A DNA stretch of 24,061 nucleotides, from positions 1 through 24,061 of the forward strand of contig JAWSUI010000057.1 of NCBI GenBank assembly GCA_033551855.1, written 5' to 3'. Each line of letters opens with the position of its first letter. Position 1 is the stretch's first letter. Below the pieces are notes generated by a model. It was not told the DNA's origin. It saw nothing but the letters and a program-made list of their open reading frames with translations, and ran no database searches. The position numbers and the translations under genes were made by a program. Source of the stretch: Deferrisomatales bacterium (GTDB taxonomy: Bacteria > Desulfobacterota > Deferrisomatia > Deferrisomatales > JACRMM01). Shown one piece after another: positions 428 to 23,688 of the stretch.

Positions 428-2335
428 TCAGAAGATGTCGCCGAAGGTCGAGCGGACCATGCCCTGAAGGCGCTCCGTGGCCTCCAGGGCGTGGCGCAAG
501 AGGTAGCGCTGCTGGATGGGCAGGGCCTGGGGGTCGATGTAGTTGTCGGGGGCTTGGCCCAGGCGAAGTTTCTTGGCTTGGGCCGTCAGGCGGAAGTGGC
601 AGAGGGTGCGGTACGCGGTCTGGACGAACTCGGCCTCGTCGGCGGGGATGGCCCCGGCCTGGGCCAGGGCTTCCAGGCGCTCGGTGGTCCCGGTTTCGGA
701 CACCCCGTGACGCAGCGCGAGGATCCGGGCGCACTCCACCACGAAGAGCAGCCCCGAGCGCTTCACGTCCATCTGACCCTTGTGGGGGCCGGAGCGCTCG
801 GTGACGAAGTTCTTGAAGAACGTCAGGGGCACACGGTGGTTGGAGGCCTCTCGGTACAGGCTTCGCAGGAGATGGAAGTTCCGTTGGATGCCCCGGGTGA
901 TGAAGGCCCGCAGGTTCTCGGCCAGTCCCGCGTCGCCCCAGATGGGCTCGAAGTCATAGAACAAGGTGGTGTAGCGCACGGCTTTGGAGTCGGGGTTGGC
1001 GTACCACCCCTGGACCTGCTCCTTCCACTCGCCGGCCGGCTTTCTCCACACGGGGTTTCGGCTCATCACGTGGCCCGTGCAAAGGGGGAACCCGGCGCGG
1101 GCCAGGCCCTCGGAGACCTTGTCTCCCAGGTCCATGAAGTAGGGCTCCACCAGGGCCCAGTCCTCCACCGGATAGTCTGCCAGGATCATGCCGTGGTCCT
1201 GGTCGGTGCTGAAGTGGTTCTCGCCCCGGCCGTGGCTCCCCATCACGATGAAACAGAAGGGCAGGGGGAGGCGGCCCCTCCCCTCCTCCTCCATCTCCAG
1301 GATCGAGAGCTCCAGAGCCCGCCGGTGAATGTCGCGGTTGATGTGGGAAAGGAGCCGGCTCACCTCCTCCGAGACCACCCCCTCGTCGAGGAGGTCGGCG
1401 CAGACCACGAGGCTCTGCTGGTGGGCCTCGCCCAAGTGCTCGAAGGACCGGGCGCCGTCGATGGCCTCCGCCAACTCCAAGGTGGCGTTGGTACCCAGGG
1501 CCAGGAGCTCCCGCATGGACAGGACCCCCACCAGCCGGCCTCCCTCCATCACCGGGAGGTGCCGCACGTGCCGGCGGCGCATGAGGCCCAGGGCGTTGTA
1601 GAGGTATGCGTCCGAGGGGAGGGTCACCACCGGGGCCGACATCACCTCGGACACCGGGACGCGGTCCGGATCCAGACTGCGGGCGAGGACCCGCTGGATC
1701 AGGTCCTTCTCCGTCACGATGCCTTGGATCCCCTCGGGGCCGGCCACGATCACCGAGCTCGCCTCGACCTCCCCCATGTACGTGGCGGCCTCCCGAGCGG
1801 TGGCCGAGGGGGGCAAAGTGGTGGCGGGGCTCGTCATCGCCTCGCTCACCCGCCGCCGGAACGGGAACGTCTGGACCCGGGTCAGGGGACCCCTTGCAGA
1901 CTGGGCCTCGATCTCGTGGAAGAGCTCCCCCACCCTCTGGGCCATGGTGACCGCCAAAACCTGGCCCACCGCAGGGTACTTCTGGACCAGGTCCTGCACT
2001 ATCGCCACCGGGATTTGAAGAATCTCCCCTGCCGCAAGCACCCGGGCCGAGACGGGGAAGGGGTCGGAAGTGAAGACGGTGAGCCAGCCCACGAACTGCC
2101 CCGGCCGGGCCAGGCTCACGGCCCGCTCTTCATCGGGGGGCCCGACCCGGATCTCCGCGGTGGCGGTGAGCAGGTAGAAGACGTGAGGGGGCTGCCCCTC
2201 TCCCTGGCGGAAGAGGTATTCCCCGACGGCGGCCTCCCTGCCGACGACCGTTTCCTCGAGCCGGCGCAGGGCTTCTTCGGGGAGCCCGCGCAGGGCGGGG
2301 ATGCCGTCGAGCAGCCGTTCCACGTCTCCGGTCAT
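428..2335 (-). CDS. cNMP-binding + tandem CBS + DUF294 nucleotidyltransferase + DUF294_C protein (635 aa)
   Basis: Start moved to ATG 2335 (MTGDVERLL), with GGAGG upstream. N-terminal Crp-type beta-roll (YLFRQGE..FYLL). CBS pair (VSEAMTSP..GIVTEKDL; VMSAPVVT..RHLPV..VGVLSMREL). Pol-beta NTase motif GSHGRGE...TDQD, then the DUF294 motifs MSRNPVWR and DVKRSG. Confidence 0.9.
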   Translation of the reverse strand: MTGDVERLLDGIPALRGLPEEALRRLEETVVGREAAVGEYLFRQGEGQPPHVFYLLTATAEIRVGPPDEERAVSLARPGQFVGWLTVFTSDPFPVSARVLAAGEILQIPVAIVQDLVQKYPAVGQVLAVTMAQRVGELFHEIEAQSARGPLTRVQTFPFRRRVSEAMTSPATTLPPSATAREAATYMGEVEASSVIVAGPEGIQGIVTEKDLIQRVLARSLDPDRVPVSEVMSAPVVTLPSDAYLYNALGLMRRRHVRHLPVMEGGRLVGVLSMRELLALGTNATLELAEAIDGARSFEHLGEAHQQSLVVCADLLDEGVVSEEVSRLLSHINRDIHRRALELSILEMEEEGRGRLPLPFCFIVMGSHGRGENHFSTDQDHGMILADYPVEDWALVEPYFMDLGDKVSEGLARAGFPLCTGHVMSRNPVWRKPAGEWKEQVQGWYANPDSKAVRYTTLFYDFEPIWGDAGLAENLRAFITRGIQRNFHLLRSLYREASNHRVPLTFFKNFVTERSGPHKGQMDVKRSGLLFVVECARILALRHGVSETGTTERLEALAQAGAIPADEAEFVQTAYRTLCHFRLTAQAKKLRLGQAPDNYIDPQALPIQQRYLLRHALEATERLQGMVRSTFGDIF

Positions 2336-2594
2336 TCCCCCTGCCTCCCGCCGCGGCGCATCCAGGCCTCCCCCCGACCGACTCCCGCCACCCCCGGGGC
2401 TCGACTCGAGCGTAACGCGGGCACCGGGTTCCGTCAACGCCGGGCCTGGTTCCCGGGGCCACCCGGCCGGGCAGATTCGGCCGGGCACGGCGGCGGGGCA
2501 GCCTTCCCTGGAAGGCCTTTTTGAGATATGGTTTGACAGTGACCCGCGGTCTCTGGTTCAAGGCAGGAAACGGAGGGTTGCACGGAGAGGGGAG

Positions 2595-2966
2595 ATGGCC
2601 AGGAAGAAGATCCTCGCGGTGGACGACGAGCCCAACATCCTCCTGTCTCTCGAGTACATCCTCGAGCAGGAGGGCTACGACGTGCACGTGGCGCGGGACG
2701 GGGAAGAGGCCCTGGAGGTCGCAGAGCGCGTCCGACCCGACCTGATCCTCCTGGACGTGGCCATGCCCCGCCGGGACGGCTATGAGGTGTGCCGCCTCCT
2801 GAGGCAGCGCGAGGACCTGACGGGGGTGCGGGTGCTGATGCTCACCGCCAAGGGGCAGCCCCTGGAGCGCAAGAAGGGGCTCGAGGTGGGGGCCGACGTG
2901 TACGTCACCAAGCCCTTCAGCGCCGACGACCTGCTCCAGAAGATCCGGGCCGCGCTGCGCGAATGA
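2595..2966 (+). CDS. Stand-alone response regulator receiver (CheY-like, 123 aa)
   Basis: ATG 2595 follows GGAGAGGGGAG. D10-D11, phosphoacceptor D54 (LLDVAMP), MLTAK and TKPF are all intact. No output domain. Confidence 0.92.
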   Translation: MARKKILAVDDEPNILLSLEYILEQEGYDVHVARDGEEALEVAERVRPDLILLDVAMPRRDGYEVCRLLRQREDLTGVRVLMLTAKGQPLERKKGLEVGADVYVTKPFSADDLLQKIRAALRE

Positions 2967-5686
2967 CGGTCGCGCCCCCTCCCCTCTCCGTCCGGCGAAG
3001 CCTGCGCACCCGCTTCGTGCTCACCTTTGCCGGGCTGGCGGTGATCCCCTCCCTGGCGGCTCTGGCTGGGCTCTTCTTCCTCGTGCGGTACGACGTGGGC
3101 ACCCTGCGGGGTGCGGACATGGCCCAGGAGGCGGGGCTGCTGGCCGCTCAGCTCGAGGCCCAGGTCGAGGCGGCCGCCCGCTCGGCGGCGGGGATCGCCA
3201 GCCTGCCCGACGTGCGGGGCCACCTCGCCGGAGAGCGACCCTACCCGCTCGCCGACCTCTCTGCCGCTCGCCGACTCGTGCCCGGCCTCCGGCACTTGAC
3301 CCTCCGGGCGGAGGCGACCCCCGATCCCCGGCTCTCCGACATCGTTACCTGGGGCACCGACGAGACCTTCGAGGTCCGGGTCCCGATCGTGGGTGTGGAG
3401 GGCGTTCGAGCGGGAACACTGGAGGTGTCCTTCGATCTGGAGCGCCTGCACCGGGTCCTCGAGTGGTACCGCCGGGGCGAGGCCGGCCGGGCGGTGCTCC
3501 TGGGGGAGGGGGGGAGGCTGTTGGCGGGGTTTGCCGATCTTCCCCTGCCGCCTTTGGGCCGGGCGAGCCGAGGATGGGTCAGCTATCGGGTGGGGGGCGA
3601 GACCTATTTTGCCGGCATCGCCCCCGTGGATCCCTGGGGCGGGGGGCTTCCGCCGGCCTGGCACCTGGCGGTCATCCAGCCGGGGGCGGAGGTCTATGCC
3701 TCCTTCTATACCGTGGCGGGGCAGATCGCCCTGGTCCTGGGCGCCTTCAGCCTGGTGGTGCTGGCCTTGGCGTGGCGCATGGCGGACCAGTTCCTGCGCC
3801 CGATCCTGCGGATTCACAACGGGGCCGAGATCATTTCCCGGATCAACCTCGCCCACCGCATTCAGGTGGACACGGGGGACGAGCTCCAGGCCCTGGCAGA
3901 AGGGTTCAACCGGATGGCCGAGAGTCTCTCGGGCGCCTACGGGGAGCTCGAGGGCCGGGTCCGGGAGACCACCCGTTCGCTGCAGGAGGAACGCAACCGG
4001 CTGGCTGCGGTGCTTCGCACCATGGCCGAGGGTGTGGTCATGGGCAACGAGGACGGAGATGTCGTCCTCATGAACCCGGCCGCCCGTGTCGCGCTGTGCA
4101 CCGGCCCTTCGGCGGGGATCGGCGGCCCCCTCTGCCACCTTCTCCCCGAGGCCCGCCTCGAGTTCTATCTGCGCCGCCTGCGAAGTCATTCGGAAGGGGG
4201 GCGGGACGCGGTCGAGCCGGTGACCTTCCCTCTGTCCCAGGGACCCCTGCTGCGGGGGCTGCTTTCCGCCATCCCGGGCCCCGGGGGCGGCCGGGCGGGG
4301 TATCTCGTGGTGTTCCGGGACACCAGCGCCCGGGCGCAGGAAGAGCGCCGCCTCGAGCGGGCGGTGCGGGAGATGCCGGAGCTCCTGCGGGGGCCCACGG
4401 CCGCCGCCCGTTCCCTCCTCGAGACCCTCGAGCGCCACCCGGACATGCCCGCCGAGCGCCAGAAGCGATTCCTGGACGGCATCCGGGAAGAGGTCTCCCG
4501 CCTGACGGATCGGCTGCGCCTGGCCGAGGACGCGGCCGAGGCGGGCCAGACCCTGCTCCCCGGCGTTCCCTGCGATCCCTCCGAGCTCCTGCGCGAGGCG
4601 GCCGCCTCGGTCTCCGGTGCCTTCGTCCAGATCGAGGACGCCGACGAGCGGCTGCCCGCGGTGTCGGTGGAGCCCTTCTCTTGGGTGTCGGCTCTGGCGG
4701 CGCTCCTGCGCTGGGCCGGGGCCCGGTCTTCCGGTTGGTCGCCCGTGCGAGCGGCCCTGCGGTGGGAGGACGGGGCGGTGGTGGCCACGTTCCAGGTGGA
4801 GGGGGCCCTGGGGTCGGGCACCGCGGAGATCGAGGAGCTCGACGCCGCGCCCCCGGGGGAGGCCCCCGCCTCCCTGGCCGAGGTGGTGCGCCGGAATCGG
4901 GGCGAGGTCTGGACGCGGGTAACGGAGGGAGGCTTCGAGGTGCGGCTGGCGCTGCTCCCGGCGACGGAGCCGGCGGCGGAGGCCCGGGTCGAGGGCATCG
5001 CGGACGAGCAGCCCGAGTTCTACGACTTCGACCTCTTCCTCCCTCGCCCTTCCACGGAGCCTGCGGAGATGCTCCGCACCTCCCTCGCGAACTTGGAATA
5101 CGTGGTCTTCGATAGTGAGACCACGGGGCTTCACCCCTCCCAGGGGGACGAGGTGGTGAGCCTGAGCGCGGTCCGGGTCCGCCACGGCAAGGTCCAGCAC
5201 GCCGACACCTTCCACAGCCTGGTCAACCCGGGTCGGCCCATTCCCCGTGCCTCGATTCGCTTTCACGGCATCGAGGACGCCATGGTGGCCGATGCCCCCG
5301 GCATGGCCGAGGTCCTTCCCCTCTTCTACGAGTACGTGGGAGGGTCGGTGCTCGTGGCCCACAACGCGGCCTTCGACAAGAAGTTCCTGGACCTGGCGGC
5401 CGGCCGGTTCGGCCTGCCCCTGCTGGAGAACCCGATCCTCGACACCCTGTTCCTCTCCTACGGCCTCCACAAGGACTTCGAGGGGCACAACCTGGACGCC
5501 ATCGCCGAGCGCTTGGGGATAGAGATGCAGGGACGGCACACCTCCCTCGGGGACGCCCGGGTGACGGCCCTGATCTTCCTGCGGCTGGTCCCGCTGCTCG
5601 CGACCCGTGGTATCGAGACCCTGGGTCAGGCCAAGGACTTCTGCGACCGGATGCTGCTCTTGCGCTGGCAGTCTTCCCGCTTCTGA
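2963..5686 (+). CDS. Membrane-anchored TM-Cache-TM-HAMP-PAS-degenerate HisKA/HATPase-DEDDh 3'-5' exonuclease (DnaQ-like) fusion (907 aa)
   Basis: ATGA overlap with the receiver stop. Two hydrophobic helices flank a periplasmic region. HAMP (LRPILRI..GDELQALAEGFNRM), PAS-like (MAEGVVMGNEDGDVVLMNPAA..LVVFRDTS) and an H-box-like ELLRGP lacking His. After the linker EFYDFDLF come Exo I FDSETTG, Exo II HNAAFD and Exo III RHTSLGDA. Confidence 0.85.
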   Translation: MTVAPPPLSVRRSLRTRFVLTFAGLAVIPSLAALAGLFFLVRYDVGTLRGADMAQEAGLLAAQLEAQVEAAARSAAGIASLPDVRGHLAGERPYPLADLSAARRLVPGLRHLTLRAEATPDPRLSDIVTWGTDETFEVRVPIVGVEGVRAGTLEVSFDLERLHRVLEWYRRGEAGRAVLLGEGGRLLAGFADLPLPPLGRASRGWVSYRVGGETYFAGIAPVDPWGGGLPPAWHLAVIQPGAEVYASFYTVAGQIALVLGAFSLVVLALAWRMADQFLRPILRIHNGAEIISRINLAHRIQVDTGDELQALAEGFNRMAESLSGAYGELEGRVRETTRSLQEERNRLAAVLRTMAEGVVMGNEDGDVVLMNPAARVALCTGPSAGIGGPLCHLLPEARLEFYLRRLRSHSEGGRDAVEPVTFPLSQGPLLRGLLSAIPGPGGGRAGYLVVFRDTSARAQEERRLERAVREMPELLRGPTAAARSLLETLERHPDMPAERQKRFLDGIREEVSRLTDRLRLAEDAAEAGQTLLPGVPCDPSELLREAAASVSGAFVQIEDADERLPAVSVEPFSWVSALAALLRWAGARSSGWSPVRAALRWEDGAVVATFQVEGALGSGTAEIEELDAAPPGEAPASLAEVVRRNRGEVWTRVTEGGFEVRLALLPATEPAAEARVEGIADEQPEFYDFDLFLPRPSTEPAEMLRTSLANLEYVVFDSETTGLHPSQGDEVVSLSAVRVRHGKVQHADTFHSLVNPGRPIPRASIRFHGIEDAMVADAPGMAEVLPLFYEYVGGSVLVAHNAAFDKKFLDLAAGRFGLPLLENPILDTLFLSYGLHKDFEGHNLDAIAERLGIEMQGRHTSLGDARVTALIFLRLVPLLATRGIETLGQAKDFCDRMLLLRWQSSRF

Positions 5687-5706
5687 CGGAGGCCGCCCCG
5701 GCACCC

Positions 5707-5895
5707 ATGGACCGCTCGAACCGAGGCCTGGCCGCCCTGCTGGTCCTGGGAGTCGCGGGGCTCCTGTCCCCCCTGGTGGGGGCCTTCAACCGGCCGGAGG
5801 GCGTGGCGGGGCTGCCGCTGCTCCCCCTCTACCTCTTCTCCACCTGGGGGGTCCTGGTCCTGGGGGCCTGGCTCCTGACCCGGAGGAAGAGGTGA
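5707..5895 (+). CDS. Small 2-TM membrane protein (62 aa), probable accessory subunit of the SLC5-type kinase
   Basis: Two hydrophobic segments (..FNRPEGVAGLPLLPLYLFSTW..) and a basic tail; GTGA-coupled to the next gene. Resembles the small membrane proteins that precede solute:sodium symporters. Confidence 0.75.
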   Translation: MDRSNRGLAALLVLGVAGLLSPLVGAFNRPEGVAGLPLLPLYLFSTWGVLVLGAWLLTRRKR

Positions 5896-8800
5896 TCTCC
5901 ACCTTCTGGGTGGCGTTCCTGGGGGTCGCCTACGTGCTGGGGCTCTTCGCCATCGCCTACGCGGCCGACCGGGCCCGCGCGCGCGGGCGGAGCCCCGTGG
6001 ACAACCCCTGGGTCTACAGCCTCTCCCTGGCGGTGTACTGCACCTCCTGGACCTTCTACGGGAGCGTGGGGCGGGCCGCGGGCCAGGGTCTCGGGTTCCT
6101 TCCCGTCTACCTCGGGCCCACCCTGGTCTTCCTCCTCGCCCCCACGGTGCTCCGGCGCGTCGTGGCCCACGCCCGGGCAGAGGGGGTCACGAGCGTGCCG
6201 GACCTGCTCGAGTCCCTGTACGGCAAAGGGCGGCTCCTGGGCGCCCTGGCCACCACGATGCTGGTGATCGGGGTGACCCCCTACATCGGCCTCCAACTCA
6301 AGGCGGTGGGGTACACCTTCGATCTCCTCACCGGGCGCCCCCCGGCGGCCACCCTGTGGGACGACGCCGCCCTGTGGGCCGCACTGGGGCTGGGTCTCTT
6401 TTCGGTTCTCTTCGGCGCCCGGACCCTTGTGACCACCGAGCGCCACGAGGGGATGGTGGCCGCGGTCGCCTTCGAGAGCGCCGTGAAACTGGGGGTTTTC
6501 CTGGTCCTGGGGGTGTACATCGTGTGGGGGATCGGAGGGGGTCTGGGGGCGGTCTTCACCGAGGCCCTGGCCCGGCCCGAGCTCTCCCATCACTTCGTCC
6601 TGGGGGAGGGGTCGGGCACGCCCTTCGCCGAATGGGTCAGCGTCAGCATCCTCTCCGCTTGCGCCGTGATCCTGCTGCCCCGGCAGTTCCACATGCTCGC
6701 CGTGGAGAACGTGCGCGAAGAGCACCTGCGGCCCGCGGCGTGGATCTTTCCCGCCTACCTCCTCCTCATCAACCTTCTCGTGCTGCCCGTGGCCCTGGTG
6801 GGGCTCCTGGCGGGGGAGCCGGGGTCGCCGGACTTCTTCCTCATCTCCATGCCCCTGTCCCGGGGCCGGATCGACCTGGCGTTCCTGGCCTTCGTGGGAG
6901 GTTTCTCGGCTGCCACCGGCATGGTGATCGTGGCTTCCGTGGCCTTGGCCACCATGATCCTCCACCACCCGGGAATCGGGCTGCTGGGGCAGTTCTCGGT
7001 CTCCCTGGGCAAGTACAACCAGGCGGACTTCAGCCGGCACCTCCTGCTCGCCAAGAGGCTCGTCATCTTTGGGGTGGTCCTTCTGGGCTACGGGTTCAAG
7101 CGGTGGATCGGAGACTCCCACACCCTGGTCAACATCGGGCTCCTGTCCTTCTCGGCGGTGACCCAGTTCGCCCCGGCCGTGTTCCTGGGTCTCTACTGGC
7201 GGGGAGGGACCCGTGCGGGGGCCCTCACCGGCCTGGTCCTGGGGTTCGCGGTCTGGTCGTACACGCTCCTCCTGCCGAGCGTCGCCGAGTCGGGGTGGGT
7301 CGGGGCGGCCATCCTTTTCGAGGGCCCTTGGGGTGTCGAGCTCTTGCGGCCCCAAGCGCTCTTCGGGCTCGCGGGGCTGGACCCTTGGACCCACGCCCTG
7401 GTGTGGAGCCTGGTGTTCAACCTGGGGGGCTACGTGACCGCCAGCCTGCTCTCGAAAGCCCGGCCCCGGGCCTCCGAGCTCTCCCCGCGCCAGACCTGGG
7501 CCTCGCGCGAGGACCTCGAGGCCCTGATCACCCGGTTCGTGGGCACCGAGAAGGCCCGGGAAGTGTTCGCGGGCCTCCCGGAGCGCGCCTCCCCCCAGGT
7601 GCTGGTGGAGACCGCCGAGCGGTGCCTCGCCGGTGCCCTCGGCACCCCTTCGGCCCGCACGGTGATCGAGAGCTTCCTCGCGTGGCCCCGGGATCAGGCG
7701 GGGGAGATCCTGGACGTGTTCGGGGGGGTGAGCCGGTCCCTGGAGGAGGGCCGCGGCTCCATGGAGCGCCGGCTGCGGGAGCTCATGGTGCTCCATGAGG
7801 CGTCGAGCACCCTCTCCAAGAGCCTCCACATCGACACGGTGCTCGCCGAGGTGCTCCACCTGATCCACCGCGAGTTCGGGTTCGAGTACCTCGGCGTGCG
7901 CCTGCTGGACCCCGACGGTATGCTCCGCATCCGCAGCAATGTGGGCCTGGAGCCCGATTACGTCCGGATCTCGGCGGTCCCCCCCTCCGAGGAAACCTAC
8001 TTCGGGACCTGCTTCCTGCGGGGCGAGCCCGTGGTGCTCGAGGACGCGCGCCACGTGGACAAGCCCGTCTTCTTCCGGCACCTGACCCAGAACGTGCCGG
8101 TGACCGCCCTGATCCACGCTCCGATGGTGCACGAGGGGCGCTCCATCGGCGTCCTGACCGGGTACGCGACCCGGGGGCCCATGCACTTCACGGAGGAGTT
8201 CGTGAGCCTGTTCGCGGCCCTGGCCAACCAGCTCGCGCTGGCCGTGGCCAACGCGCGCCTCTACGCCGAGGTCTCCGACTACAGCCACGCCATGGAGGAG
8301 AAGGTGCGCCACCGCACGGCCGAGCTCGAGGCGGCCAACGCCCGCCTCCGGGAGCTCGACCGGCTCAAGAGCGACTTCCTGTCCACCGTGAGCCACGAGC
8401 TGCGCACCCCCCTGACGTCGATCCGCTCCTTCTCCGAGATCCTGCTCCGCTATGACGTGGACAAGCCCGAGCAGCGGCGCAAGTTCATCGCGATCATCCA
8501 GGCGGAGGCAGAGCGGCTGTCCCGGATGATCAACGAGCTCCTGGACCTGTCCAAGATCGAGGCCGGCAGGATAGAGCTCAACCCCGAGCCGGTGGGGGTG
8601 GAGCAGGCGATCCGCAAGGCCCTGGACGTCGCGCGTCCCCTCCTGGCGGAGAAGGGGGTGCTCGGCCGGCAAGACGTGGAGCGGGGGCTGCCCCTGGTCC
8701 ACGCCGACTCGGACCGCCTGCAGCAGGTGCTGGCGAATCTGCTCTCCAACGCCGCCAAGTTCGCTCCGGCCGAGAGCGAGGTCCGGGTCTCGGCCCGGCG

Positions 8801-9092
8801 CCGGGGGGATTTCGCCGTCCTCAGCGTCTCGGACCGGGGCGCGGGCATCCCTGCCGCGCGACTGAACGAGGTGTTCGAGCGCTACCGCCAGGTCCGCGAT
8901 CCCGAGAAGGCCCACCCCCTGGGCACGGGTCTGGGGTTGTCGATCTCCAAGGAGATCGTCCAGCGCCTGGGCGGCCAGATCTGGGTGGAGAGCGAGCCGG
9001 GGGAGGGGACCACCTTCTTTTTCACCCTGCCCCTGGTGCCGGCCTCCACCGCGTCGCACCCCGACGGCACCCCCGGTACCCCCTCCGCGTGA
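5892..9092 (+). CDS. SLC5 (Na+/solute symporter)-STAC-GAF-HisKA-HATPase sensor histidine kinase, CrbS/CbrA-related (1066 aa)
   Basis: GTG 5892 follows GGAGG. SLC5-kinase motifs YSLSLAVYCTSWTFYGSVG, PYIGLQLKA, LPRQFH and GGFSAATGMVIV. STAC-like helices (LITRFVG..AERCLAGALGTPSAR) and a GAF domain (GEPVVLED..APMVHEGRSIGVL..LANQLALAVANARLY). H-box SHELRTP (H835), N-box NLLSNAAKF, G1 DRGAGI, G2 GTGLGL. No receiver domain. Confidence 0.92.
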   Translation: MISTFWVAFLGVAYVLGLFAIAYAADRARARGRSPVDNPWVYSLSLAVYCTSWTFYGSVGRAAGQGLGFLPVYLGPTLVFLLAPTVLRRVVAHARAEGVTSVPDLLESLYGKGRLLGALATTMLVIGVTPYIGLQLKAVGYTFDLLTGRPPAATLWDDAALWAALGLGLFSVLFGARTLVTTERHEGMVAAVAFESAVKLGVFLVLGVYIVWGIGGGLGAVFTEALARPELSHHFVLGEGSGTPFAEWVSVSILSACAVILLPRQFHMLAVENVREEHLRPAAWIFPAYLLLINLLVLPVALVGLLAGEPGSPDFFLISMPLSRGRIDLAFLAFVGGFSAATGMVIVASVALATMILHHPGIGLLGQFSVSLGKYNQADFSRHLLLAKRLVIFGVVLLGYGFKRWIGDSHTLVNIGLLSFSAVTQFAPAVFLGLYWRGGTRAGALTGLVLGFAVWSYTLLLPSVAESGWVGAAILFEGPWGVELLRPQALFGLAGLDPWTHALVWSLVFNLGGYVTASLLSKARPRASELSPRQTWASREDLEALITRFVGTEKAREVFAGLPERASPQVLVETAERCLAGALGTPSARTVIESFLAWPRDQAGEILDVFGGVSRSLEEGRGSMERRLRELMVLHEASSTLSKSLHIDTVLAEVLHLIHREFGFEYLGVRLLDPDGMLRIRSNVGLEPDYVRISAVPPSEETYFGTCFLRGEPVVLEDARHVDKPVFFRHLTQNVPVTALIHAPMVHEGRSIGVLTGYATRGPMHFTEEFVSLFAALANQLALAVANARLYAEVSDYSHAMEEKVRHRTAELEAANARLRELDRLKSDFLSTVSHELRTPLTSIRSFSEILLRYDVDKPEQRRKFIAIIQAEAERLSRMINELLDLSKIEAGRIELNPEPVGVEQAIRKALDVARPLLAEKGVLGRQDVERGLPLVHADSDRLQQVLANLLSNAAKFAPAESEVRVSARRRGDFAVLSVSDRGAGIPAARLNEVFERYRQVRDPEKAHPLGTGLGLSISKEIVQRLGGQIWVESEPGEGTTFFFTLPLVPASTASHPDGTPGTPSA

Positions 9093-9259: not shown

Positions 9260-10396
9260 ATGGGAAAGGACTATTACGCCACCCTGGGGGTGGCGCGCAC
9301 GGCCTCGAACGAGGAGATCAAGAAGGCTTACCGCAAGCTTGCCCTCAAGTACCACCCCGACCGGAACCCCGGGGACGAGGGCGCGGAGGAGCGCTTCAAG
9401 GCCTGCGCCGAAGCCTACGAGGTGCTGGGAGACCCGGAGAAGCGCCGGCTCTACGACGCCTATGGGGAGGAGGGGCTGAGCGCCCGCGGGGTTCCCCACG
9501 GCTTCCGAGGGTTCGAGGACATCTTCTCTACCTTCGGCGACATCTTCGGCGACCTGGGTTTGGGATTCGGTGGGGGTGGCCGGCGGCGGGTGCGCCGGGG
9601 GCGGGACCTGCGGCACGAGGTCACGGTCACCCTGGCGGAGGTGGCCCGGGGGGACGTCCGGAAGATCCGGGTCCGCAAGCCCTCGGTCTGCCCCGACTGC
9701 GGCGGCCGGGGCGCGGCGTCCGCCGCGGACGTTCGCACCTGCCCGGCCTGTCAGGGGAGGGGCGCCGTGATCCAGGTGCTCCGCCAGGGCTTCACCACCT
9801 TCCAGACCACCCGGCCCTGCGGCGAGTGCGGGGGGACGGGCCGTCTCGTCACCCGGCCTTGTGAGGCCTGCCGGGGCGAAGGGATGGTGCGCGCCGAGAA
9901 AATCGTGGAGGTGCGCATCCCCGCCGGGGTGGAGGACGGCCAGCAGCTTCGCCTCGACGGGGAGGGAGAGGAGATCCCCGACGGGGTGCCCGGCGACCTC
10001 TACGTCGTCCTGCGGGAGGAGGAGCATCCGCTCTTCGAGCGCAGGGGCGCGGACCTCTTTGCCCCCCTTCGGGTGGACCTCCTCCGGGCGGTGGAGGGGG
10101 GCACCGTGGAGGTGGAGGGCCCCGGGGGCGACGCCGTGGCCGTGACCCTGGAGCCGGGGGTCCAGGCGGGCGCCGTGAAGGTGATCCGGGGGGGAGGCCT
10201 GCCGGTGCTGGGGCGGGGAAGGGCCCGGGGGGACCTCTACCTCCAGGTCTGGGTGACCACGCCCCAGGGGCTCGACCGGGAACGGGTGGCCGCCCTCCGG
10301 AAGGTACTGGAGGGCGCCCCCCTGTGCGCGGAGGAGATTCACCACCGGGGCTGGAAGGAGTGGCTCCGGGCCCTCTTCGGCGGCGGCCCGCCCTAG
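9260..10396 (+). CDS. dnaJ: Class A J-domain co-chaperone DnaJ (378 aa)
   Basis: J domain with HPD, a G/F region, four CxxCxGxG repeats ([32 protein letters not shown]) and the C-terminal domain (IPAGV, GDLYV). RBS GGAGGAG. Confidence 0.93.
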
Positions 10397-10837: not shown

Positions 10838-11935
10838 CTACGCGGAGATCCTCCCTCCGGAATTGAGCAGCACCGCCCGCTCGAAGTCGGAGGGGTTGGT
10901 TGCGGCGCAGCGGGCGGTCTCGAACTCGATGACGCCCTGGTTGTAGAGGTCCATGAGGTGCTGGTCGAAGGACTGGGTGCCGTAGTTGTCCCGGCCCGCC
11001 TCGATCACGTCCTTGATCTCGTGGGTCTTCAACGGGTCCTTGATGCACTCCTCCAGGTGCCGGGTCATCCGAAGGATCTCCAGGGCGGCGACACGGCCCT
11101 TCCCCTCCTTGCGGGGGAGCAGCCGCTGGCTGACGGTGGCCTTGAGGTTCTCCGCGAGCCGGATCCGCACCATGTTCTGCTCCTCGGCCGGGAAGACGCT
11201 GATGAGGCGCCCCACGGTCTTCGCCGCGTCGGTCGTGTGCACGGTGCTGAAGACCAGATGGCCGGTCTCCGCGGCCTTGAGGGCCGTGTCGATGGTCTCC
11301 GTGTCCCGCATCTCCCCCACCAGGATGATGTCCGGGTCCTGCCGCAGGGCGGCCCGAAGCGCGATGTTGAAATTGGGGGTGTCGAGCCCGATCTCCCGCT
11401 GGCTCACCGAGCTCCTTCTGTTCCGGTGCACGAACTCGATGGGGTCCTCGATGGTGATGATGTGGGCGCGGGACCGCTCGTTGAGGTGGTCGATCATGGC
11501 CGCCAGGGTCGAGGACTTGCCGCTTCCGGTGACCCCGGTGATGAGGACCAGCCCCCGCTCCTCCAGGGCGATGTCCTCCAGGACCCGGGGAAGCCCCAGG
11601 CTCTGGAACGTCGGGATCTCCAGGGGGATCACCCGCAGGATCACCGCCAGGGTGTTGCGCTGGCGGTAGATGTTTACCCGGAAGCGTCCCACCCCGCTCA
11701 AAGAGTACGAGCCGTCCCACTCCCGGATGTCCTGCGGGGGAACCGGCGGGCTGGCCCCCGCCGTGACCAGTGCGGCGACCGCGGCCGTGTCCTCCGAGGA
11801 CAGGGGCGGGGTCTTGGCCTCCTGGAGCACGCCGTTCACCCGGAGCAGGATGGGGGTGTTCACCTTGAGGTGGACGTCGCTGGCCTGGGCCTTGAGCGCC
11901 CCGGCCAGAATCCTGTGAAACGTCTCTTTCTCCAT
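10838..11935 (-). CDS. pilT: Type IV pilus retraction ATPase, PilT/PilU family (365 aa)
   Basis: ASDVHL, RFRVNIY, Walker A GVTGSGKS, Asp box TIEDPIE, Walker B ALRQDPDIILVGEMRD and His box ETGHLVFSTVHT. The AIRNLIRE motif is replaced by HLEECIKD, so this is a paralogue. Confidence 0.9.
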   Translation of the reverse strand: MEKETFHRILAGALKAQASDVHLKVNTPILLRVNGVLQEAKTPPLSSEDTAAVAALVTAGASPPVPPQDIREWDGSYSLSGVGRFRVNIYRQRNTLAVILRVIPLEIPTFQSLGLPRVLEDIALEERGLVLITGVTGSGKSSTLAAMIDHLNERSRAHIITIEDPIEFVHRNRRSSVSQREIGLDTPNFNIALRAALRQDPDIILVGEMRDTETIDTALKAAETGHLVFSTVHTTDAAKTVGRLISVFPAEEQNMVRIRLAENLKATVSQRLLPRKEGKGRVAALEILRMTRHLEECIKDPLKTHEIKDVIEAGRDNYGTQSFDQHLMDLYNQGVIEFETARCAATNPSDFERAVLLNSGGRISA

Positions 11936-13138: not shown

Positions 13139-14221
13139 TCACGGGAGGTCCCGGGGCCGCGGGACCGTGAAGCGGAAGGTCGTCCCCCCTCCGGGCTCGG
13201 ACTCCTCCACCCAGATCCTGCCGCCGCGGGTTTCGACAATCTTTCGGCAGATGGCCAGCCCGATCCCGGTTCCGGGATACTCGGAGGCTCCCCAGAGCCT
13301 CTCGAACAAGCGGAAGATCCGCTCCCGGTCAGCGGGGTCGATGCCGATGCCGTTGTCCCGGACGGCGAACACCCACTCGCCCGGGTGCTCCTCCACGCCC
13401 ACGTGCACCCGGGGCGGCTCGCCCCCCCGGAACTTGAGCGCGTTGCCGACCAGGTTCTGGAAGAGTTGGACGAGCTCCGTGGGGTGGCCGGGCACAGCCG
13501 GGAGGGGGTCGTGCGTAACCCGGGCGCCACAGGCCTCGATCTCGGCGGCGAGGTTCGCCAGGGCTTCCTCCAGGGCGGTGCCCGCCTCGACGGGGACCGG
13601 CTCCTGCCCCCCCCTCCCCACCTTCGAGTAGGAGAGCAGATCGCAGATCAGCGTCTCCATGCGCTCGGCGCCCCGGGCGGCCTGGTCCAGGTACGCGAGC
13701 CCGTCCGGGCCCAGCCGGTCCGCGAACCGTCGCCGCAGGAGTTGGAGGTAGCCCAGCACGGCCACGAGGGGGGACTTGAGGTCGTGGGCCGCCGCGGCCG
13801 CGTACTGCTCCAGCTCGGTGTTGGACCGGGCGAGCTCCAGGCTCTTCCGGGTGAGGGCGCGCCGGGCCGATTCCCGCTCGGCGAGCAGGGTGCGGCTCCG
13901 GTCCGTGACGAACGCGAGCACGGCGAAGACGAGAAACCCCCCCAGGGCGTTCCAGTAGGGGGCCTGGGGCAGCAGGTAGCGGTGACCGCCGAGGTGGTCG
14001 GCGGCGAGCCACGTCAGGGCGGCCCAAGCGGCGAGGGCGATCCCGTGCCCCAAGCCGGCCCTCCAGGCCACGAAGTACACGGGGCCCACGTAGAGGATCT
14101 CGGCGCTGAGCTCGATCCCGGTCGCGAGATCCACCAACCCGACCACCAGGACCAGCAGCGCCCCCTGGTACAGGCTGCGCCTCCGGGCTGCTGCGCGGGC
14201 CGGGGGGTGGCTCTTCGACAT
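13139..14221 (-). CDS. Membrane sensor histidine kinase (360 aa), orphan
   Basis: Start ATG 14221 (MSKSHPP). About 4 TM segments (DUF4118-like intramembrane sensor, inferred). Cph1-like core: RSNTELEQYAAAAAHDLKSP, QLFQNLVGNALKF, DNGIGI, IFRLFERL, GTGIGL. Confidence 0.88.
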   Translation of the reverse strand: MSKSHPPARAAARRRSLYQGALLVLVVGLVDLATGIELSAEILYVGPVYFVAWRAGLGHGIALAAWAALTWLAADHLGGHRYLLPQAPYWNALGGFLVFAVLAFVTDRSRTLLAERESARRALTRKSLELARSNTELEQYAAAAAHDLKSPLVAVLGYLQLLRRRFADRLGPDGLAYLDQAARGAERMETLICDLLSYSKVGRGGQEPVPVEAGTALEEALANLAAEIEACGARVTHDPLPAVPGHPTELVQLFQNLVGNALKFRGGEPPRVHVGVEEHPGEWVFAVRDNGIGIDPADRERIFRLFERLWGASEYPGTGIGLAICRKIVETRGGRIWVEESEPGGGTTFRFTVPRPRDLP

Positions 14222-14352
14222 CCGAGCGCTCCGAAGACGGAGGGGAAGGAAGCCGGCACTCAACCCAGGAGTATCACGGCAGCCCCGCACGGGCCAAGCA
14301 CGACGTCGGCCTGGGGCCGCCTCCCGTCGGCCCGGCGCCGTCGCGGGGGGCC

Positions 14353-14799
14353 TCAGGTCCCGGACGCGGGGTGGCAGGCGGTGCACCCCCGGTCCGAGAA
14401 GCCCCGGTGATCGTCCGGGAAGGGGAAGACCCCCTCCGGGCCGTGGCAGTCCCCGCAGCTCTCGTACCCCTCGAGGGGGTGGGGAAGGGGCGCGGCGGCG
14501 CCGGGGGAGGCGGGGGGAGGCGCAGAGGGGGCCGGGCCGGGGGCGTGGCAACGGGTGCAGCTCGCGGTGCTCCAGCCCAGGTGCCGGACAGGATAGGGCT
14601 TCACCCCTTGGGGGCCGTGGCAGGCGCCGCAGCGCTCCCGCCCCTCGATGGGGTGGGAGACCTCCTGGGCCTGGCTCGCTGCGGTGCCCGCGGAGAGCTC
14701 CCAGACCTCCGGTGACTGGACCACCGCGAAGACGACGGCCGCCAGGAGGATGAGCGCCCCCGTCACCGCCGCCAGGTGTCTGGAGTACAGCTCGCGCAT
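14353..14799 (-). CDS. Membrane-anchored/exported tetrahaem c-type cytochrome with two NapB-like dihaem repeats (148 aa)
   Basis: N-terminal hydrophobic helix; four CxxCH motifs (CGACH, CTRCH, CGDCH, CTACH) and four extra His; an internal duplication separated by a Pro/Ala linker. Confidence 0.88.
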   Translation of the reverse strand: MRELYSRHLAAVTGALILLAAVVFAVVQSPEVWELSAGTAASQAQEVSHPIEGRERCGACHGPQGVKPYPVRHLGWSTASCTRCHAPGPAPSAPPPASPGAAAPLPHPLEGYESCGDCHGPEGVFPFPDDHRGFSDRGCTACHPASGT

Positions 14800-14809: not shown

Positions 14810-16132
14810 TCAGACGAAGTTGAAGCTCTCGGACTGGCACTGCTCCAGGGGTAGGCCGAGCCGCTCCAGCATCGTCTTCACCGCCATCTGCACGGGTTCC
14901 GGGCCGCAGACGAAGTAGTCGCGCTCCAGGCGGTCCGCGGGCAGGTACCGGGCCAGGGTTTCCGCCGAGAGCCGCCCCCTCTCCCCGGTCCACCCCTCCG
15001 CGGGCCGGGACAGCACGTGGACCACGTCCAGGTCGAGGCGCAGGCGCAGGTCCTCCAGCTCCTCCCGAAAGGTGGCCTCGGCCAGGTTCCGGCTCTGGTA
15101 CATCAGCAGCAGGGGCCGGCGGTCGCGCCGGTCGGCGAGGGTGCGCAGGATGCACATGACGGGGGTGATCCCCACCCCCGCGGCGATGAAGACGTAGCCC
15201 CTCGCCGGGTGGCGGTCCACCGAGAAGGAGCCGTAGGGGCCGTCCAGGTAGGCCCGGGTCCCCGGGGTCACCGACCCGATGGTGGAGGTGAAGTCCCCCA
15301 GCTCCTTGATGGTGATCTGCACGCGGTCCTGCTGGAGGGAGCTGGACGAGAACGAGAAGGGGTGCTCCCGGATCGCGAAGGGGGAGCGGTCGACCTTGAG
15401 CCACGCGAACTGCCCGGGCTCGAAGACCATGCCCGGGTGCCCGTCGGGGCGCAGGGTGAGCGTCCAGCTCCTTCCCCGCTCCGGAAGGACCTCGTCCACC
15501 ACCCAGGGGCGCCGGAGCATGCCCAGCGGCTTGATCAGCCGCACGTAGACCAGGGTGAAGACCCAGGCGGCGACGATCGTCACCCAGAGGCCGACCTTGA
15601 GGGGTCCCTGCACGTAGTAGCCCACCCCGGCGATGTGCCCCACCGAGAGCCCCACTGCCGTCACGGAGAGCAGGGCGTGGGAGACCCGCCACGCCTCGTA
15701 GCTCAGCCCCACGCGCTCGCGCTCCAGGGAGGCCGCGATGATGACGCCGAAGGCCGCCACGCCGGCCGTGCCCGCCGTGATCCACCAGGGCCCGGTGGCG
15801 GGGTTCAGGAGGGCGAGGGTGGCCGGGGCCTGGGCGAGCAGGATGGCCGCGTGGGCCACGATGAGCCCGAAGGCGATCAGGGAGATGCGCCGGTGGAAGT
15901 GATACACGACGTCGACCCCGTAGGGCGACGTGATGCGTCGGAAGCGCCCGGTCAGGAAGAACTGGAAGCCCATCATCGACACCCCCGCGAACCCCAGCCC
16001 CACCGAGAGCTCGCGCCAGAAGCCCCGCCCCGGCGGCATGGGCCCCACGAACAGGGCGAGCAGGGGCAGGGCCACGAAGGCAAGGTACACCGCGATCCAG
16101 AACGTCGCGCGGAGCAGGAACCGTGGGCTCAT
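14810..16132 (-). CDS. Ferric reductase/NOX-like flavocytochrome b (TM + FAD + NAD(P)H domains, 440 aa)
   Basis: Six TM helices with two His pairs (FHRRIS..VAHA; VSHALL..VGHI), FAD motif EHPFSFSS, GPYGSF, NAD motif AAGVGITP, CGP and C-terminal ESF. Confidence 0.9.
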   Translation of the reverse strand: MSPRFLLRATFWIAVYLAFVALPLLALFVGPMPPGRGFWRELSVGLGFAGVSMMGFQFFLTGRFRRITSPYGVDVVYHFHRRISLIAFGLIVAHAAILLAQAPATLALLNPATGPWWITAGTAGVAAFGVIIAASLERERVGLSYEAWRVSHALLSVTAVGLSVGHIAGVGYYVQGPLKVGLWVTIVAAWVFTLVYVRLIKPLGMLRRPWVVDEVLPERGRSWTLTLRPDGHPGMVFEPGQFAWLKVDRSPFAIREHPFSFSSSSLQQDRVQITIKELGDFTSTIGSVTPGTRAYLDGPYGSFSVDRHPARGYVFIAAGVGITPVMCILRTLADRRDRRPLLLMYQSRNLAEATFREELEDLRLRLDLDVVHVLSRPAEGWTGERGRLSAETLARYLPADRLERDYFVCGPEPVQMAVKTMLERLGLPLEQCQSESFNFV

Positions 16133-16534: not shown

Positions 16535-17095
16535 ATGGGTGATCGGGTCTCGGCGGCTGGGGGTGCCGGGGCGGAACGGCGGTTTTTCCGGACCCCGGGT
16601 CGGTACCTGGCCCGGGTGGCGGGGTACGGGCTCGTGTGGTGGGCGCTGGCCGGCGGGGAGGCCTCGTCCTGGGTTCTGGGGGCCCCCGCGGTCGGCGCCG
16701 CGGCGGCCCTCGGGCTGCGCCTGTCCCCTCCGGGCACCCCCCCTTGGAGAGCCGGGGGCGTGGCGCGCTTTCTCCCGTACTTCCTGTGGCAGTCCCTGAG
16801 GGGCGGCTTCGACGTGGCCCAGCGGGCCCTCGCCCCGGGCCCACCCCTCACGCCGGGCCTTCTGCACCTGCCGTGGCGGCTTCCCGAGGGTCCCGCCCGC
16901 GTCCTCTTCGCCAACGCGGTGAGCCTCTCCCCGGGCACCCTGAGCGCCGCGTTGGGCGCCGACGGGCTCACGGTGCACGTGCTCGACCTGGACCGGTCGG
17001 TCTCGTCGCACCTGGCGGTCCTGGAAGCGCGGGTCGCGGGGGTCTTCGGCCTGACGCTGCCACCCCCCCTCCCCGGGGAGGCCGGCGGTGGGTGA
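16535..17095 (+). CDS. mrpE: Mrp/Mnh Na+/H+ antiporter subunit E (186 aa)
   Basis: ATG 16535 follows AAGGAG. Motifs YFLWQSLRGGFDVA, LFANAVSLSPGTL and VHVLD. Confidence 0.85.
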   Translation: MGDRVSAAGGAGAERRFFRTPGRYLARVAGYGLVWWALAGGEASSWVLGAPAVGAAAALGLRLSPPGTPPWRAGGVARFLPYFLWQSLRGGFDVAQRALAPGPPLTPGLLHLPWRLPEGPARVLFANAVSLSPGTLSAALGADGLTVHVLDLDRSVSSHLAVLEARVAGVFGLTLPPPLPGEAGGG

Positions 17096-17378
17096 GCTCC
17101 ACGTGGGACTGGCTCTCCTGCTCCTCGGGACCCTCGTGGCGGGGACCGCCCGGATTCTCCGGGGTCCCACCCCTCCTGACAGGATGCTGGCGGCCCAGCT
17201 CATGGGAACCACGGTCGTGGCGGTGCTCCTGCTCCTGGCCGAGGGCCTCGGGACACGGGCCCTGGCGGACGTGGCGCTGGTCTTCGCCCTCTTGGCGGCC
17301 GTGGCCGCCGTTGCCCTGGTGCGCCGGGGCTGGCCACCCCCCCCCGAGGGGTCCGGAGACGGGAGGGGCGGGCAGTGA
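17088..17378 (+). CDS. mrpF: Mrp/Mnh antiporter subunit F (96 aa)
   Basis: RILRGPTPPDRMLA and DVALVFALL; 3 TM segments. Confidence 0.85.
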   Translation: MGELHVGLALLLLGTLVAGTARILRGPTPPDRMLAAQLMGTTVVAVLLLLAEGLGTRALADVALVFALLAAVAAVALVRRGWPPPPEGSGDGRGGQ

Positions 17379-17677
17379 ACCCGGTCTCCGTCCTCTCCCT
17401 CGGCCTGCTCCTCGGCGGCGCCTTCTTCTTCGTGGCCGGCACGGTGGGCCTCCTGCGGTTCCCGGATGTGTACACCCGCCTGCACGCCCTGACCAAGGCC
17501 GACAATCTGGGGTTGGGGTTCGTGGTCCTGGGCCTCGCGGTGGGGGCGGAGTCCGCTGGGCACGTGGTGCGCCTGCTCCTCACCTGGGCCCTGGTCCTGG
17601 TGGCGAGCGCCACCTCGGCCCACCTTGTGGCGCGGGCGGCAGGAGCGAGGGGAGTGCCCCCCTGGACGCGCCCGTGA
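17375..17677 (+). CDS. mrpG: Mrp/Mnh antiporter subunit G (100 aa)
   Basis: GLLRFPDVYTRLHALTKADNLG and SAHLVARAA; GTGA overlap. Confidence 0.9.
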   Translation: MNPVSVLSLGLLLGGAFFFVAGTVGLLRFPDVYTRLHALTKADNLGLGFVVLGLAVGAESAGHVVRLLLTWALVLVASATSAHLVARAAGARGVPPWTRP

Positions 17678-18618: not shown

Positions 18619-18914
18619 GCCCCGGCTTCCTCTACGCCTTTGCGGGGGCCGCCCTCTTCGCCCTGGGCCTGCACGCGGCCTTTTTTCGGCCCCCGTTCCT
18701 GCGCCGTCTCATCGGGGTGAACGTCATGGGCAGCGGCGTCTTCCTCGTGCTCGTCGCGGCGGCCCGCCGTGCCCCGGCGGGGCCTCCGGATCCCGTGCCC
18801 CACGCCATGGTGCTCACCGGGCTGGTCGTCTCTGTGAGTGCCACAGCCCTGGCGCTGGCCCTGCGGGCCCGGCTCCGGAAGCCGGGGGGCCCCACCGACG
18901 CTGCAGGGGGCTGA
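18615..18914 (+). CDS. mrpC: Mrp/Mnh antiporter subunit C, NuoK-like (99 aa)
   Basis: GTG 18615 (GTGA overlap). RRLIGVNVMGSGVFL and DPVPHAMVLTGLVV. Confidence 0.88.
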   Translation: MSPGFLYAFAGAALFALGLHAAFFRPPFLRRLIGVNVMGSGVFLVLVAAARRAPAGPPDPVPHAMVLTGLVVSVSATALALALRARLRKPGGPTDAAGG

Positions 18915-18916
18915 GG

Positions 18917-23684: not shown

Positions 23685-23688
23685 CGGA

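Follow-up and report, generated by a model that had tools for sequence, protein, structure and literature searches.

What would a bacterium do with an exonuclease of the DNA polymerase III epsilon type that is held in the membrane behind a sensory chain? The question is raised by a gene in a 24,061-nucleotide stretch of DNA from a Deferrisomatales bacterium (assembly GCA_033551855.1, contig JAWSUI010000057.1, positions 1 to 24,061 of the forward strand), the whole of which we call the window. The gene encodes a protein of 907 amino acids (aa), here called the sensor-exonuclease. The conserved module of which it is part comprises at most four genes, for a DUF294 nucleotidyltransferase, an SLC5-type kinase, a receiver and the sensor-exonuclease itself. 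The signalling part of the protein is a WalK-like chain of transmembrane (TM), HAMP, PAS, DHp and CA parts, to which a periplasmic dCache-like domain is added here. On balance, we lean towards the interpretation that it is a signal-gated exonuclease, the enzymatic output of an SLC5-kinase/receiver pathway, and that it works with the DUF294 enzyme.

The sensor-exonuclease gene (2963..5686, plus strand) was defined from a single open reading frame (ORF), Pfam and NCBIfam matches and an alignment of homologues. The ORF runs from an ATG at 2963 through 907 codons to a stop at 5684-5686. Its GC content by codon position (GC1/2/3 = 0.77/0.51/0.86) has the pattern of a real gene, and the surrounding DNA is 72% GC. 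Two AF2 models were made, an N-terminal one of aa 1-345 (41 aligned sequences, pLDDT 81.6) and a C-terminal one of aa 442-907 (25 sequences, pLDDT 77.1). The parts of the protein follow one another in this order, all on the plus strand:

3014..3085, plus: TM1, aa 18-41, after the basic N-terminus RRSLRTR; read from the sequence, within helix 14-79 of the N-terminal model
3086..3703, plus: periplasmic dCache-like domain, aa 42-247; AF2 pLDDT mostly 80-96, Foldseek matches to dCache domains at E 1e-6 to 1e-5
3704..3775, plus: TM2, aa 248-271; read from the sequence, within model helix 246-291
3779..3931, plus: HAMP domain, aa 273-323; Pfam HAMP 2.4e-9, 37.8 bits against a cut-off of 25
3998..4336, plus: PAS domain, aa ~346-458; sub-cut-off Pfam PAS_4/PAS and profile matches to VicK/WalK
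4328..4546, plus: DHp-like helical hairpin, aa 456-528, with Glu473 replacing the phospho-acceptor His; helices 15-50 and 56-87 of the C-terminal model, family-profile alignment
4565..4954, plus: CA-like alpha/beta domain, aa 535-664, with degenerate N, G1 and G2 boxes; model strands and helices 94-223, fold match to HK853
5012..5038, plus: linker motif PEFYDFDLF, aa 684-692, about 25 residues ahead of Exo I; alignment
5102..5578, plus: DEDDh 3'-5' exonuclease, aa 714-872, with Exo I D717/E719, Exo II D805 and Exo III H859/D864; Pfam RNase_T
5621..5683, plus: conserved C-terminal helix or tail, aa 887-907, ending ...FCDRMLLLRWQSSRF; alignment, model helix 446-465

This domain order had been read from the letters alone in a first-pass annotation, which also considered that the fusion might be an assembly chimera. 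The order was borne out and the fusion is real. A protein search gave 521 proteins at E<=0.001 among 8000 candidates, and at least 569 confirmed stretches were found across many phyla in a contig collection with one genome per species. Of 120 matches listed in the protein search, 119 carry PF00929 and 119 carry PF00672; named members among the matches listed are from Geobacter, Desulfuromonas, Deferrisomatales and Steroidobacteraceae. The carriers among the at least 569 stretches include Desulfuromonadaceae, Competibacteraceae, Burkholderiales, Rhodocyclales, Rhodospirillales and Pseudomonas, as well as Colwellia, Magnetococcales, Nitrospirota, Chloroflexota and Actinomycetota. Among 151 sampled genomes of the source phylum, 6 have the full-length nuclease module, five of them over query residues 1-227 and one over 3-227; all 5 sampled genomes of the source order, the source genome (G000) included, carry it. 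The members are named 'exonuclease domain-containing protein' or 'DNA polymerase III subunit epsilon' in databases. Two stretches of 10-18 kb each hold two paralogous long exonuclease-fusion genes (L026, 699-1337 and 9351-10016; L038, 1739-2347 and 9294-9941), and the second copy in L038 directly adjoins a DUF294 gene.

The nuclease domain was recognised by Pfam: RNase_T (PF00929) matched aa 714-872 at E 1.5e-34 (120.4 bits against a cut-off of 24). The five catalytic residues that the first-pass annotation had reported as intact (D717, E719, D805, H859 and D864) were invariant in 25 of 25 aligned homologues. With a strict regular expression, Exo I (DTETTG-type) was found in 79, Exo II (HNAAFD) in 78 and Exo III in 75 of 80 related loci. 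In PDB profile searches the domain matched the exonuclease of PolC (PolC-exo; 2p1j_A, 1.4e-38) and epsilon (1j53_A, 3.2e-23). The fold matches (Foldseek) were to PolC-exo (9qrn_A, 5.3e-14) and epsilon (2gui, 1.3e-11), in addition to DinG-exo, Exo X and RNase T. By sequence and fold, the catalytic output is a DEDDh 3'-5' exonuclease of the epsilon/PolC type, presumably dependent on Mg2+.

Two conserved elements flank this domain. In the linker ahead of it, E685, F686, Y687, F689, D690, L691 and F692 were invariant in 25 of 25 homologues. The P-E-x-Y-D-F core was present in all 79 loci printed, as PE[FYV]YDF or PEFFDF, with two PVYYDF and two LE[FY]YDF as variants; in the model the PEFYDF stretch was predicted to be disordered, with pLDDT below 50. 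A sliding-clamp-binding role for 'DFDLF' was considered and dropped, because PEFYDF alone is constant and the next residues vary across loci (SLA, SLL, ELL). Behind the domain, the tail residues F893, C894, D895, L898, L900, W902, Q903 and R906 were likewise invariant in 25 of 25, and the final residue is aromatic in 76 of the 80 loci. The PEFYDF motif and the conserved C-terminal helix mark the subfamily to which this nuclease belongs.

Between the PAS domain and the nuclease, the first-pass annotation had placed HisKA-like and HATPase-like segments. The fold of this assignment stood; the kinase is dead by its sequence, which had been missed. The aa 442-907 model begins with a helical hairpin and an alpha/beta domain; after a poorly predicted linker come the exonuclease domain and a terminal helix. 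It matched HK853 (4jav_A) in fold over 243 columns (Foldseek, E 6.4e-9), and a profile of the kinase region from 20 family members matched histidine kinases over DHp and CA together (9m08_C, 3.8e-9; HK853, 3.3e-8). A Pfam scan of the 907-aa protein gave neither a HisKA nor a HATPase_c match. The His of 'SHELRTPL' in HK853 aligned with a family-consensus Glu, which is Glu473 here, and this position varies among close homologues (E/R/Q/A/K). In the alignment to 9m08_C, the Asn of the N box and the glycines of the G2 box were absent. With its phospho-acceptor His and its ATP boxes both lost, the core is unable to act as a kinase; it is present as a fold and catalytically dead.

The order and fold of the TM-HAMP-PAS-DHp-CA chain are those of class I sensor histidine kinases such as WalK/VicK and HK853, and positions 179-422 of the WalK profile NF033092 matched aa 249-514. 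The sensor-exonuclease differs from these kinases in the His to Glu473 replacement, in its degenerate N, G1 and G2 boxes and in the appended exonuclease.

The sensory parts are structurally supported. In the aa 1-345 model, a TM helix extends into a long helix, followed by two small alpha/beta modules and a second long helix that leads into HAMP. Foldseek matched this model to the ligand-binding dCache domains of chemoreceptors, with TM-scores of 0.5-0.59 by target; PscC (6mni_B) had E 1.6e-6 and a TM-score of 0.59, and further matches were Mlp24, Mlp37, PctA, CtaA and Tlp3. The model was also grouped with full-length chemoreceptor models. No Cache family was among the Pfam matches of the protein at E<=0.01. 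Judged from the model, the label 'Cache-like' given to the periplasmic domain in the first-pass annotation is correct at the level of fold. The HAMP domain lies straight after TM2 and scored above its Pfam cut-off. For PAS, the Pfam scores were under the cut-offs (20.4 vs 23.1; 20.0 vs 22.6). The PAS assignment is supported by the many homologues with PF08448/PF00989 in precomputed Pfam annotation and by profile matches to VicK (4i5s_A, 1.9e-7, aa 303-517) and to the PAS domain of WalK (4mn5_A/7duc_A).

The members fall into three length classes of about 890-920, about 813-840 and about 690-723 aa. By alignment, what sets these classes apart is the periplasmic domain, which is complete, truncated or missing and thus dispensable in the family. 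A search with the nuclease part found shorter forms too, among them proteins of 294 aa encoded on long contigs and proteins of ~460-490 aa that join PAS and nuclease; all cover 96-100% of aa 680-907. The periplasmic sensor is an optional add-on to a conserved core of TM, HAMP, PAS, dead kinase and nuclease. Gating by a periplasmic ligand, the logic proposed at first reading, does not hold for the family in general, as the ~830-aa and ~720-aa forms are without part or all of that domain.

If the kinase core is dead, which genes could feed a signal into it? The first-pass annotation had made no use of the neighbouring genes. The window has three candidates for partners around the sensor-exonuclease gene, and one divergent intergenic region, as follows:

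428..2335, minus: cNMP-binding / 2x CBS / DUF294 nucleotidyltransferase / DUF294_C gene, 635 aa from a Met at 2335; Pfam
2336..2594, no strand: divergent intergenic region of 259 bp between the DUF294 gene and the receiver gene, from the chosen start codons
2595..2966, plus: single-domain response-regulator receiver gene, 123 aa; Pfam Response_reg 9.2e-31
5892..9092, plus: sensor kinase gene with SLC5-type transporter-like, GAF, HisKA and HATPase_c parts; Pfam and PDB profile, start at 5892 inferred

The TGA of the receiver gene overlaps the ATG of the sensor-exonuclease gene (ATGA, 2963-2966), and from this overlap the two genes are predicted to be translationally coupled. The receiver residues D10, D11, D54, T84 and K106 are all present and were conserved in 20 aligned orthologues. 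A scan of 2250-6000 for promoters and terminators gave no sigma-70-like site and no terminator between genes, and no Rfam family matched in the window.

The SLC5-type kinase matched HisKA (1.2e-22), HATPase_c (1e-30) and GAF_2 (1.2e-16) in Pfam, with HisKA and HATPase_c over their cut-offs, and its H-box SHELRTPL is intact. Its match to SSF was weak (1.6e-4, 21.1 bits against a cut-off of 22.8). Its transporter-like N-terminal part (5892-7300 of the window) matched PDB entry 10ed_A, a 'histidine kinase' of 606 aa, at 3.5e-64 over aa 9-465. A solved SLC5-type sensor kinase domain thus exists and is usable for modelling. The kinase in the window shares an SLC5-like N-terminal domain and an intact kinase core with the CrbS/CbrA-type SLC5/STAC kinases. 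The source genome has a second SLC5-type transporter-like domain (G000:C37:8211-9932), 46% identical to that in the window.

The DUF294 gene had Pfam matches to DUF294_C (2.3e-43), DUF294 (6.7e-39), CBS (1.5e-23) and cNMP_binding (1.7e-11). The enzyme motif G366-S367...D378-x-D380 was invariant in 16 of 16 aligned relatives, and the enzyme looks active. It is the sole strong DUF294 match in the 4.24-Mb genome. For a solved relative of the DUF294 domain, a single-sequence search gave nothing meaningful and a profile search was swamped by CBS-domain matches.

The 80 related loci were compared by tblastn with the proteins of the window; 70 of them had enough upstream sequence, and 42, the fully flanked subset, had >7 kb upstream and >5 kb downstream. 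A same-strand receiver gene was directly upstream in 62 of the 70 loci (65 of 80 overall), and in these 65 it ended 1.1-2.7 kb before the nuclease domain. Relatives of the SLC5-type N-terminal domain were found in 52 of 80 loci, and a DUF294 gene lay within 8 kb of the sensor-exonuclease in 51. In the fully flanked loci, DUF294 was present in 28 of 42, the SLC5-type domain in 33, at least one of them in 39 and both in 22; L004, L035 and L071 had neither. The gene order is variable, with DUF294 upstream or downstream and on either strand, and the gene set recurs. The most conserved partner is the translationally coupled receiver gene, usually accompanied by the SLC5-type sensor kinase, and both of these links are stronger than that to DUF294. 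We infer that the adjacency of DUF294 is far above chance, since a genome has only about one to four DUF294 genes. In a metagenome-assembled genome of Rhodospirillales, the DUF294 relative beside the sensor-exonuclease has an in-frame stop (L037:5789-7351); the gene may be split or a pseudogene, or the stop may be a sequencing error.

A DUF294 nucleotidyltransferase beside a DnaQ-type exonuclease, tied to an SLC5-type sensor kinase system, is already known from Pseudomonas putida (alloputida) KT2440 as PP_0354 and PP_0353, of which we take PA3233 and PA3232 to be the equivalents. According to PMC9927547, PP_0354 (cNMP-CBS-nucleotidyltransferase) and PP_0353 (RNase_T family) form an operon whose promoter is bound directly by ErdR. 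In the same paper, MxtR/ErdR (= CrbS/CrbR) is described as an SLC5-kinase system with this operon as its direct target, and deletions of the two genes caused no defect on acetate or succinate (PMC9927547). A preprint (10.64898/2026.09.07.749794) places the pair among the most MxtR/ErdR-dependent genes and gives a moderate reduction of growth, on propionate in both mutants and on pyruvate in the PP_0353 mutant. Another paper mentions Pflu5625 as the equivalent gene, together with an earlier prediction of protein nucleotidylation (PMC5715377). Nothing on the DUF294/exonuclease pair was found in PMC9100948.

The Pseudomonas nuclease is small and soluble and its tie to the kinase is transcriptional, whereas in the window it forms one protein with a membrane sensor whose kinase core is dead, and its gene lies beside the kinase and receiver genes. 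One Pseudomonas genome has the fused gene and also two DUF294 genes elsewhere, each followed by a small DnaQ-type gene. The nuclease domain of the sensor-exonuclease is 28.6-28.9% identical to these DUF294-paired small exonucleases, both of which are without PEFYDF; the link to PP_0353 is one of analogy and logic, not of orthology.

Small nucleases pair with DUF294 elsewhere, but within the DNA fetched for the 80 loci none was found next to the DUF294 genes that are linked to the sensor-exonuclease. This holds for all 51 of these neighbouring genes, and queries of the PP_0353 type matched only the nuclease domains of the sensor-exonucleases and two paralogues. In the window, no exonuclease gene was found in the 427 bp between the downstream end of the DUF294 gene and the end of the contig, and the sole further RNase_T-family match in the source genome has a WYL regulator and a Cas3-like gene as its neighbours. 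This complementary distribution of small and fused nucleases is our main argument for the fused nuclease as the partner of DUF294: by analogy with the pairs, it may stand in for the enzyme's own nuclease.

From these observations, a signalling path can be proposed. The intact SLC5-type kinase would phosphorylate the small receiver. The phosphorylated receiver would dock on the His-less DHp-like hairpin, a fold that in HK853 is the receiver-binding surface, and the signal would then run 'backwards' into the dead kinase. Docking, together with input from HAMP and PAS and here also from dCache, would switch the C-terminal exonuclease on or off. A possible model for such reverse signalling is DivL of Caulobacter, which we take to be a pseudokinase without the phospho-acceptor His that senses whether the single-domain regulator DivK is phosphorylated; both cases combine a His-less DHp/CA core with a single-domain receiver. 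They differ in that DivL controls another kinase and not a fused enzyme, and in that receiver binding is predicted here from gene coupling only. A complex prediction with two copies of the DHp/CA region and the receiver scored 0.37, against 0.45 with an unrelated protein as chain 1; it gave no answer and was used neither way.

In the last step, the exonuclease would remove, as nucleoside 5'-monophosphate, a 3'-terminal or ester-linked nucleotide that had been added by the DUF294 enzyme. The two would form a writer/eraser pair, whose acceptor may be the 3' end of an RNA or oligonucleotide, a linear messenger made of nucleotides or the side chain of a protein, and the pair would be tied to the sensing or uptake of small organic anions. 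What is transcriptional control in Pseudomonas would be post-translational control in the fused module. To our knowledge, every characterised DEDDh enzyme cleaves sugar-3'-O-P bonds, and for this reason a protein side chain seems to us a less likely acceptor than a linear nucleotide messenger or the 3' end of an RNA or oligonucleotide. Action on a nucleotidylated target or a nucleotide messenger, as suggested at first reading, is consistent with the divergent DUF294 nucleotidyltransferase but unproven. GlnD and GlnE are nucleotidyl writer/eraser enzymes, and they too combine a sensor-gated Pol-beta-type nucleotidyltransferase with a removing activity; the DUF294 domain weakly matched the GlnE model PRK14109 (5.5e-5). 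Removal by GlnD and GlnE is the task of an HD or second nucleotidyltransferase domain and the target is a protein, whereas here the remover would be a DEDDh nuclease.

Taken in full, the proposal would amount to a new two-component output, from an SLC5-type kinase through a receiver and a membrane-bound dead-kinase scaffold to a DEDDh eraser of a nucleotidyl mark or linear messenger written by a cNMP/CBS-gated DUF294 enzyme. It would be a reversible nucleotide-tagging switch, widespread across phyla, that tunes the uptake or metabolism of small organic anions. In this complete form we offer it tentatively, and some part of it may well be wrong.

Several observations weigh against a signal-gated partner of DUF294. 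No DUF294 gene was in the neighbourhood in 14 of the 42 fully flanked loci. Five genomes without an adjacent DUF294 gene were searched whole; four have one elsewhere and one, from Colwellia, has none. A search for DUF294 proteins of >1113 aa, as candidate fusions, gave none, which is weak evidence, and no in-frame DUF294-exonuclease fusion was found in the 80 loci. The low identity to the DUF294-paired exonucleases of Pseudomonas, given above, is a further point. A literature search found no paper on the fused form and no biochemistry for any member of the subfamily. In P. putida, mutants in either gene of the pair are only mildly affected, with phenotypes on pyruvate and propionate (PMC9927547, 10.64898/2026.09.07.749794). 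The characterised nucleases closest to the domain are proofreaders of DNA (PolC-exo, epsilon, DinG-exo and Exo X), so that plain DNA or RNA 3' ends are the default substrate.

The alternative that survives best follows from these same points. The protein could be a signal-regulated nuclease acting on ordinary nucleic-acid 3' ends, such as those of single-stranded DNA, of RNA in processing or turnover or of short oligonucleotides, independently of DUF294, and its neighbourhood would then reflect nothing more than shared regulation. The closest relatives both in sequence and in fold are DNA 3'-5' exonucleases, and the weaker link to DUF294, with the loci and the genome that have none, also speaks for it. 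Against this alternative stand the facts that 51 of 80 loci have a DUF294 gene within 8 kb despite its few copies per genome, and that these neighbouring DUF294 genes have no small exonuclease of their own. We consider it unlikely, and yet the one to be taken most seriously.

Could the protein be the epsilon subunit after all? The first-pass annotation doubted the label that pipelines may give, and the family profiles supported that doubt. Among NCBIfam models, the broad dnaq model TIGR00573 alone was passed (95-99 bits against 71.5), and the epsilon equivalogs failed (TIGR01406 dnaQ_proteo, 96-100 bits against 222.7; PRK05711, 95.5-99.6 against 196). Epsilon is a small soluble protein of about 240 aa with a C-terminal polymerase-binding segment, the alpha-binding tail. 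Against this profile, the sensor-exonuclease has 907 aa, two TM helices, a sensor chain and only about 35 aa after the nuclease domain. It shares the DEDDh fold and motifs with epsilon and PolC-exo, with TM-scores by target of 0.85-0.88 to epsilon structures. It carries a PEFYDF of its own on the N-terminal side and, where epsilon has the alpha-binding tail, a C-terminal helix of its own. Besides the fusion, 3 of 5 other genomes checked have a short, stand-alone dnaQ-type frame that passes the dnaq cut-off (Pseudomonas, 246 aa, 222 bits; Colwellia, 263 aa, 165 bits; Desulfuromonadaceae, 209 aa, 105 bits).

The source lineage is the place where this alternative, a functional epsilon-like proofreader that is membrane-tethered and possibly signal-modulated, has its strongest case, and the following also counts against our interpretation. 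In the source genome, which is 100% complete by marker genes (132 contigs), the sensor-exonuclease (98.9 bits) is the sole gene over the TIGR00573 cut-off, and the other match had 12.5 bits. Likewise, the other four sampled genomes of the order (G099, G025, G065 and G130), one of them a single contig, have no other gene over the cut-off. Since there is no second dnaQ-type gene in the lineage, another copy cannot be used to dismiss the epsilon reading here, and the nuclease domain is most similar to those of PolC and epsilon. In many bacteria, proofreading is done by the PHP domain of DnaE; no canonical dnaQ was found in the source genome or the four other sampled genomes of its order, and that domain may do the proofreading there. 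The membrane anchor and sensor chain, which make a poor replisome subunit, the failed equivalog scores, the neighbourhood of signalling and transporter-like rather than replication genes, and the coexistence in three of five carriers together make it unlikely that the sensor-exonuclease is the replisome epsilon subunit, and we think it very improbable that it proofreads for a dnaQ-less lineage. The bolder idea, that the sole epsilon-like nuclease of a dnaQ-less order is itself signal-gated, is hardly credible at present.

Weakest of all is the alternative that the nuclease domain is a non-catalytic ligand- or partner-binding module, or the protein a part of anti-phage defence: DEDDh domains do occur in defence contexts (Cas2-DEDDh 8fy9_A matched at 1.2e-9) and the other DEDDh gene of the source genome adjoins a Cas3-like gene, but with five catalytic residues invariant in 25 of 25 homologues and a neighbourhood of metabolic-signalling genes that is conserved across phyla, not variable like a defence island, it is highly improbable. 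That other gene is the sole further RNase_T-family match in the source genome and lies between a WYL regulator and the Cas3-like gene, in locus L081 (G000:C39:11500-14200):

1033-1638 of L081, minus: 201-aa DEDDh exonuclease, RNase_T 7.1e-9; profile match

Its neighbours, a WYL-type regulator (1722-2687, minus) and a Cas3 HD-helicase-like gene, were read by eye, and the nuclease is possibly CRISPR- or defence-associated.

The rest of the window holds these genes:

9260-10396, plus: DnaJ gene
10838-11935, minus: PilT/T2SSE-type ATPase gene, T2SSE 3.9e-46
13139-14551, minus: second, conventional histidine kinase gene
14810-16132, minus: ferric-reductase-like flavocytochrome gene
~16600-23700, plus: Mrp/Mnh-type multisubunit cation/proton antiporter cluster

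The DnaJ gene, the second kinase gene, the flavocytochrome gene and the antiporter cluster are ordinary genes, and no link from them to the sensor-exonuclease was seen. Beside the PilT/T2SSE gene, the region at 11.99-13.1 kb has long open frames without a Pfam match.

All parts of the signal-gated nuclease module are of known kinds. The combination of a dead WalK-like scaffold and a DEDDh nuclease with an SLC5-kinase/receiver pair and DUF294 was not found in the literature, and we file the module as a new form of the known, uncharacterised DUF294/DnaQ-like pair. The label 'DNA polymerase III subunit epsilon' that pipelines give to its members is misleading, especially in a lineage without another dnaQ-type gene. 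The label covers a large and phylogenetically broad family whose wiring would run from kinase to receiver to dead-kinase scaffold to nuclease, with a nucleotidyltransferase as partner. Once the substrate is identified, the DUF294/exonuclease pair that has long been noticed in Pseudomonas and Vibrio, where CrbS/MxtR controls it, would be explained as well. If the proposed path is true, an enzyme-output branch would be added to SLC5-kinase signalling.

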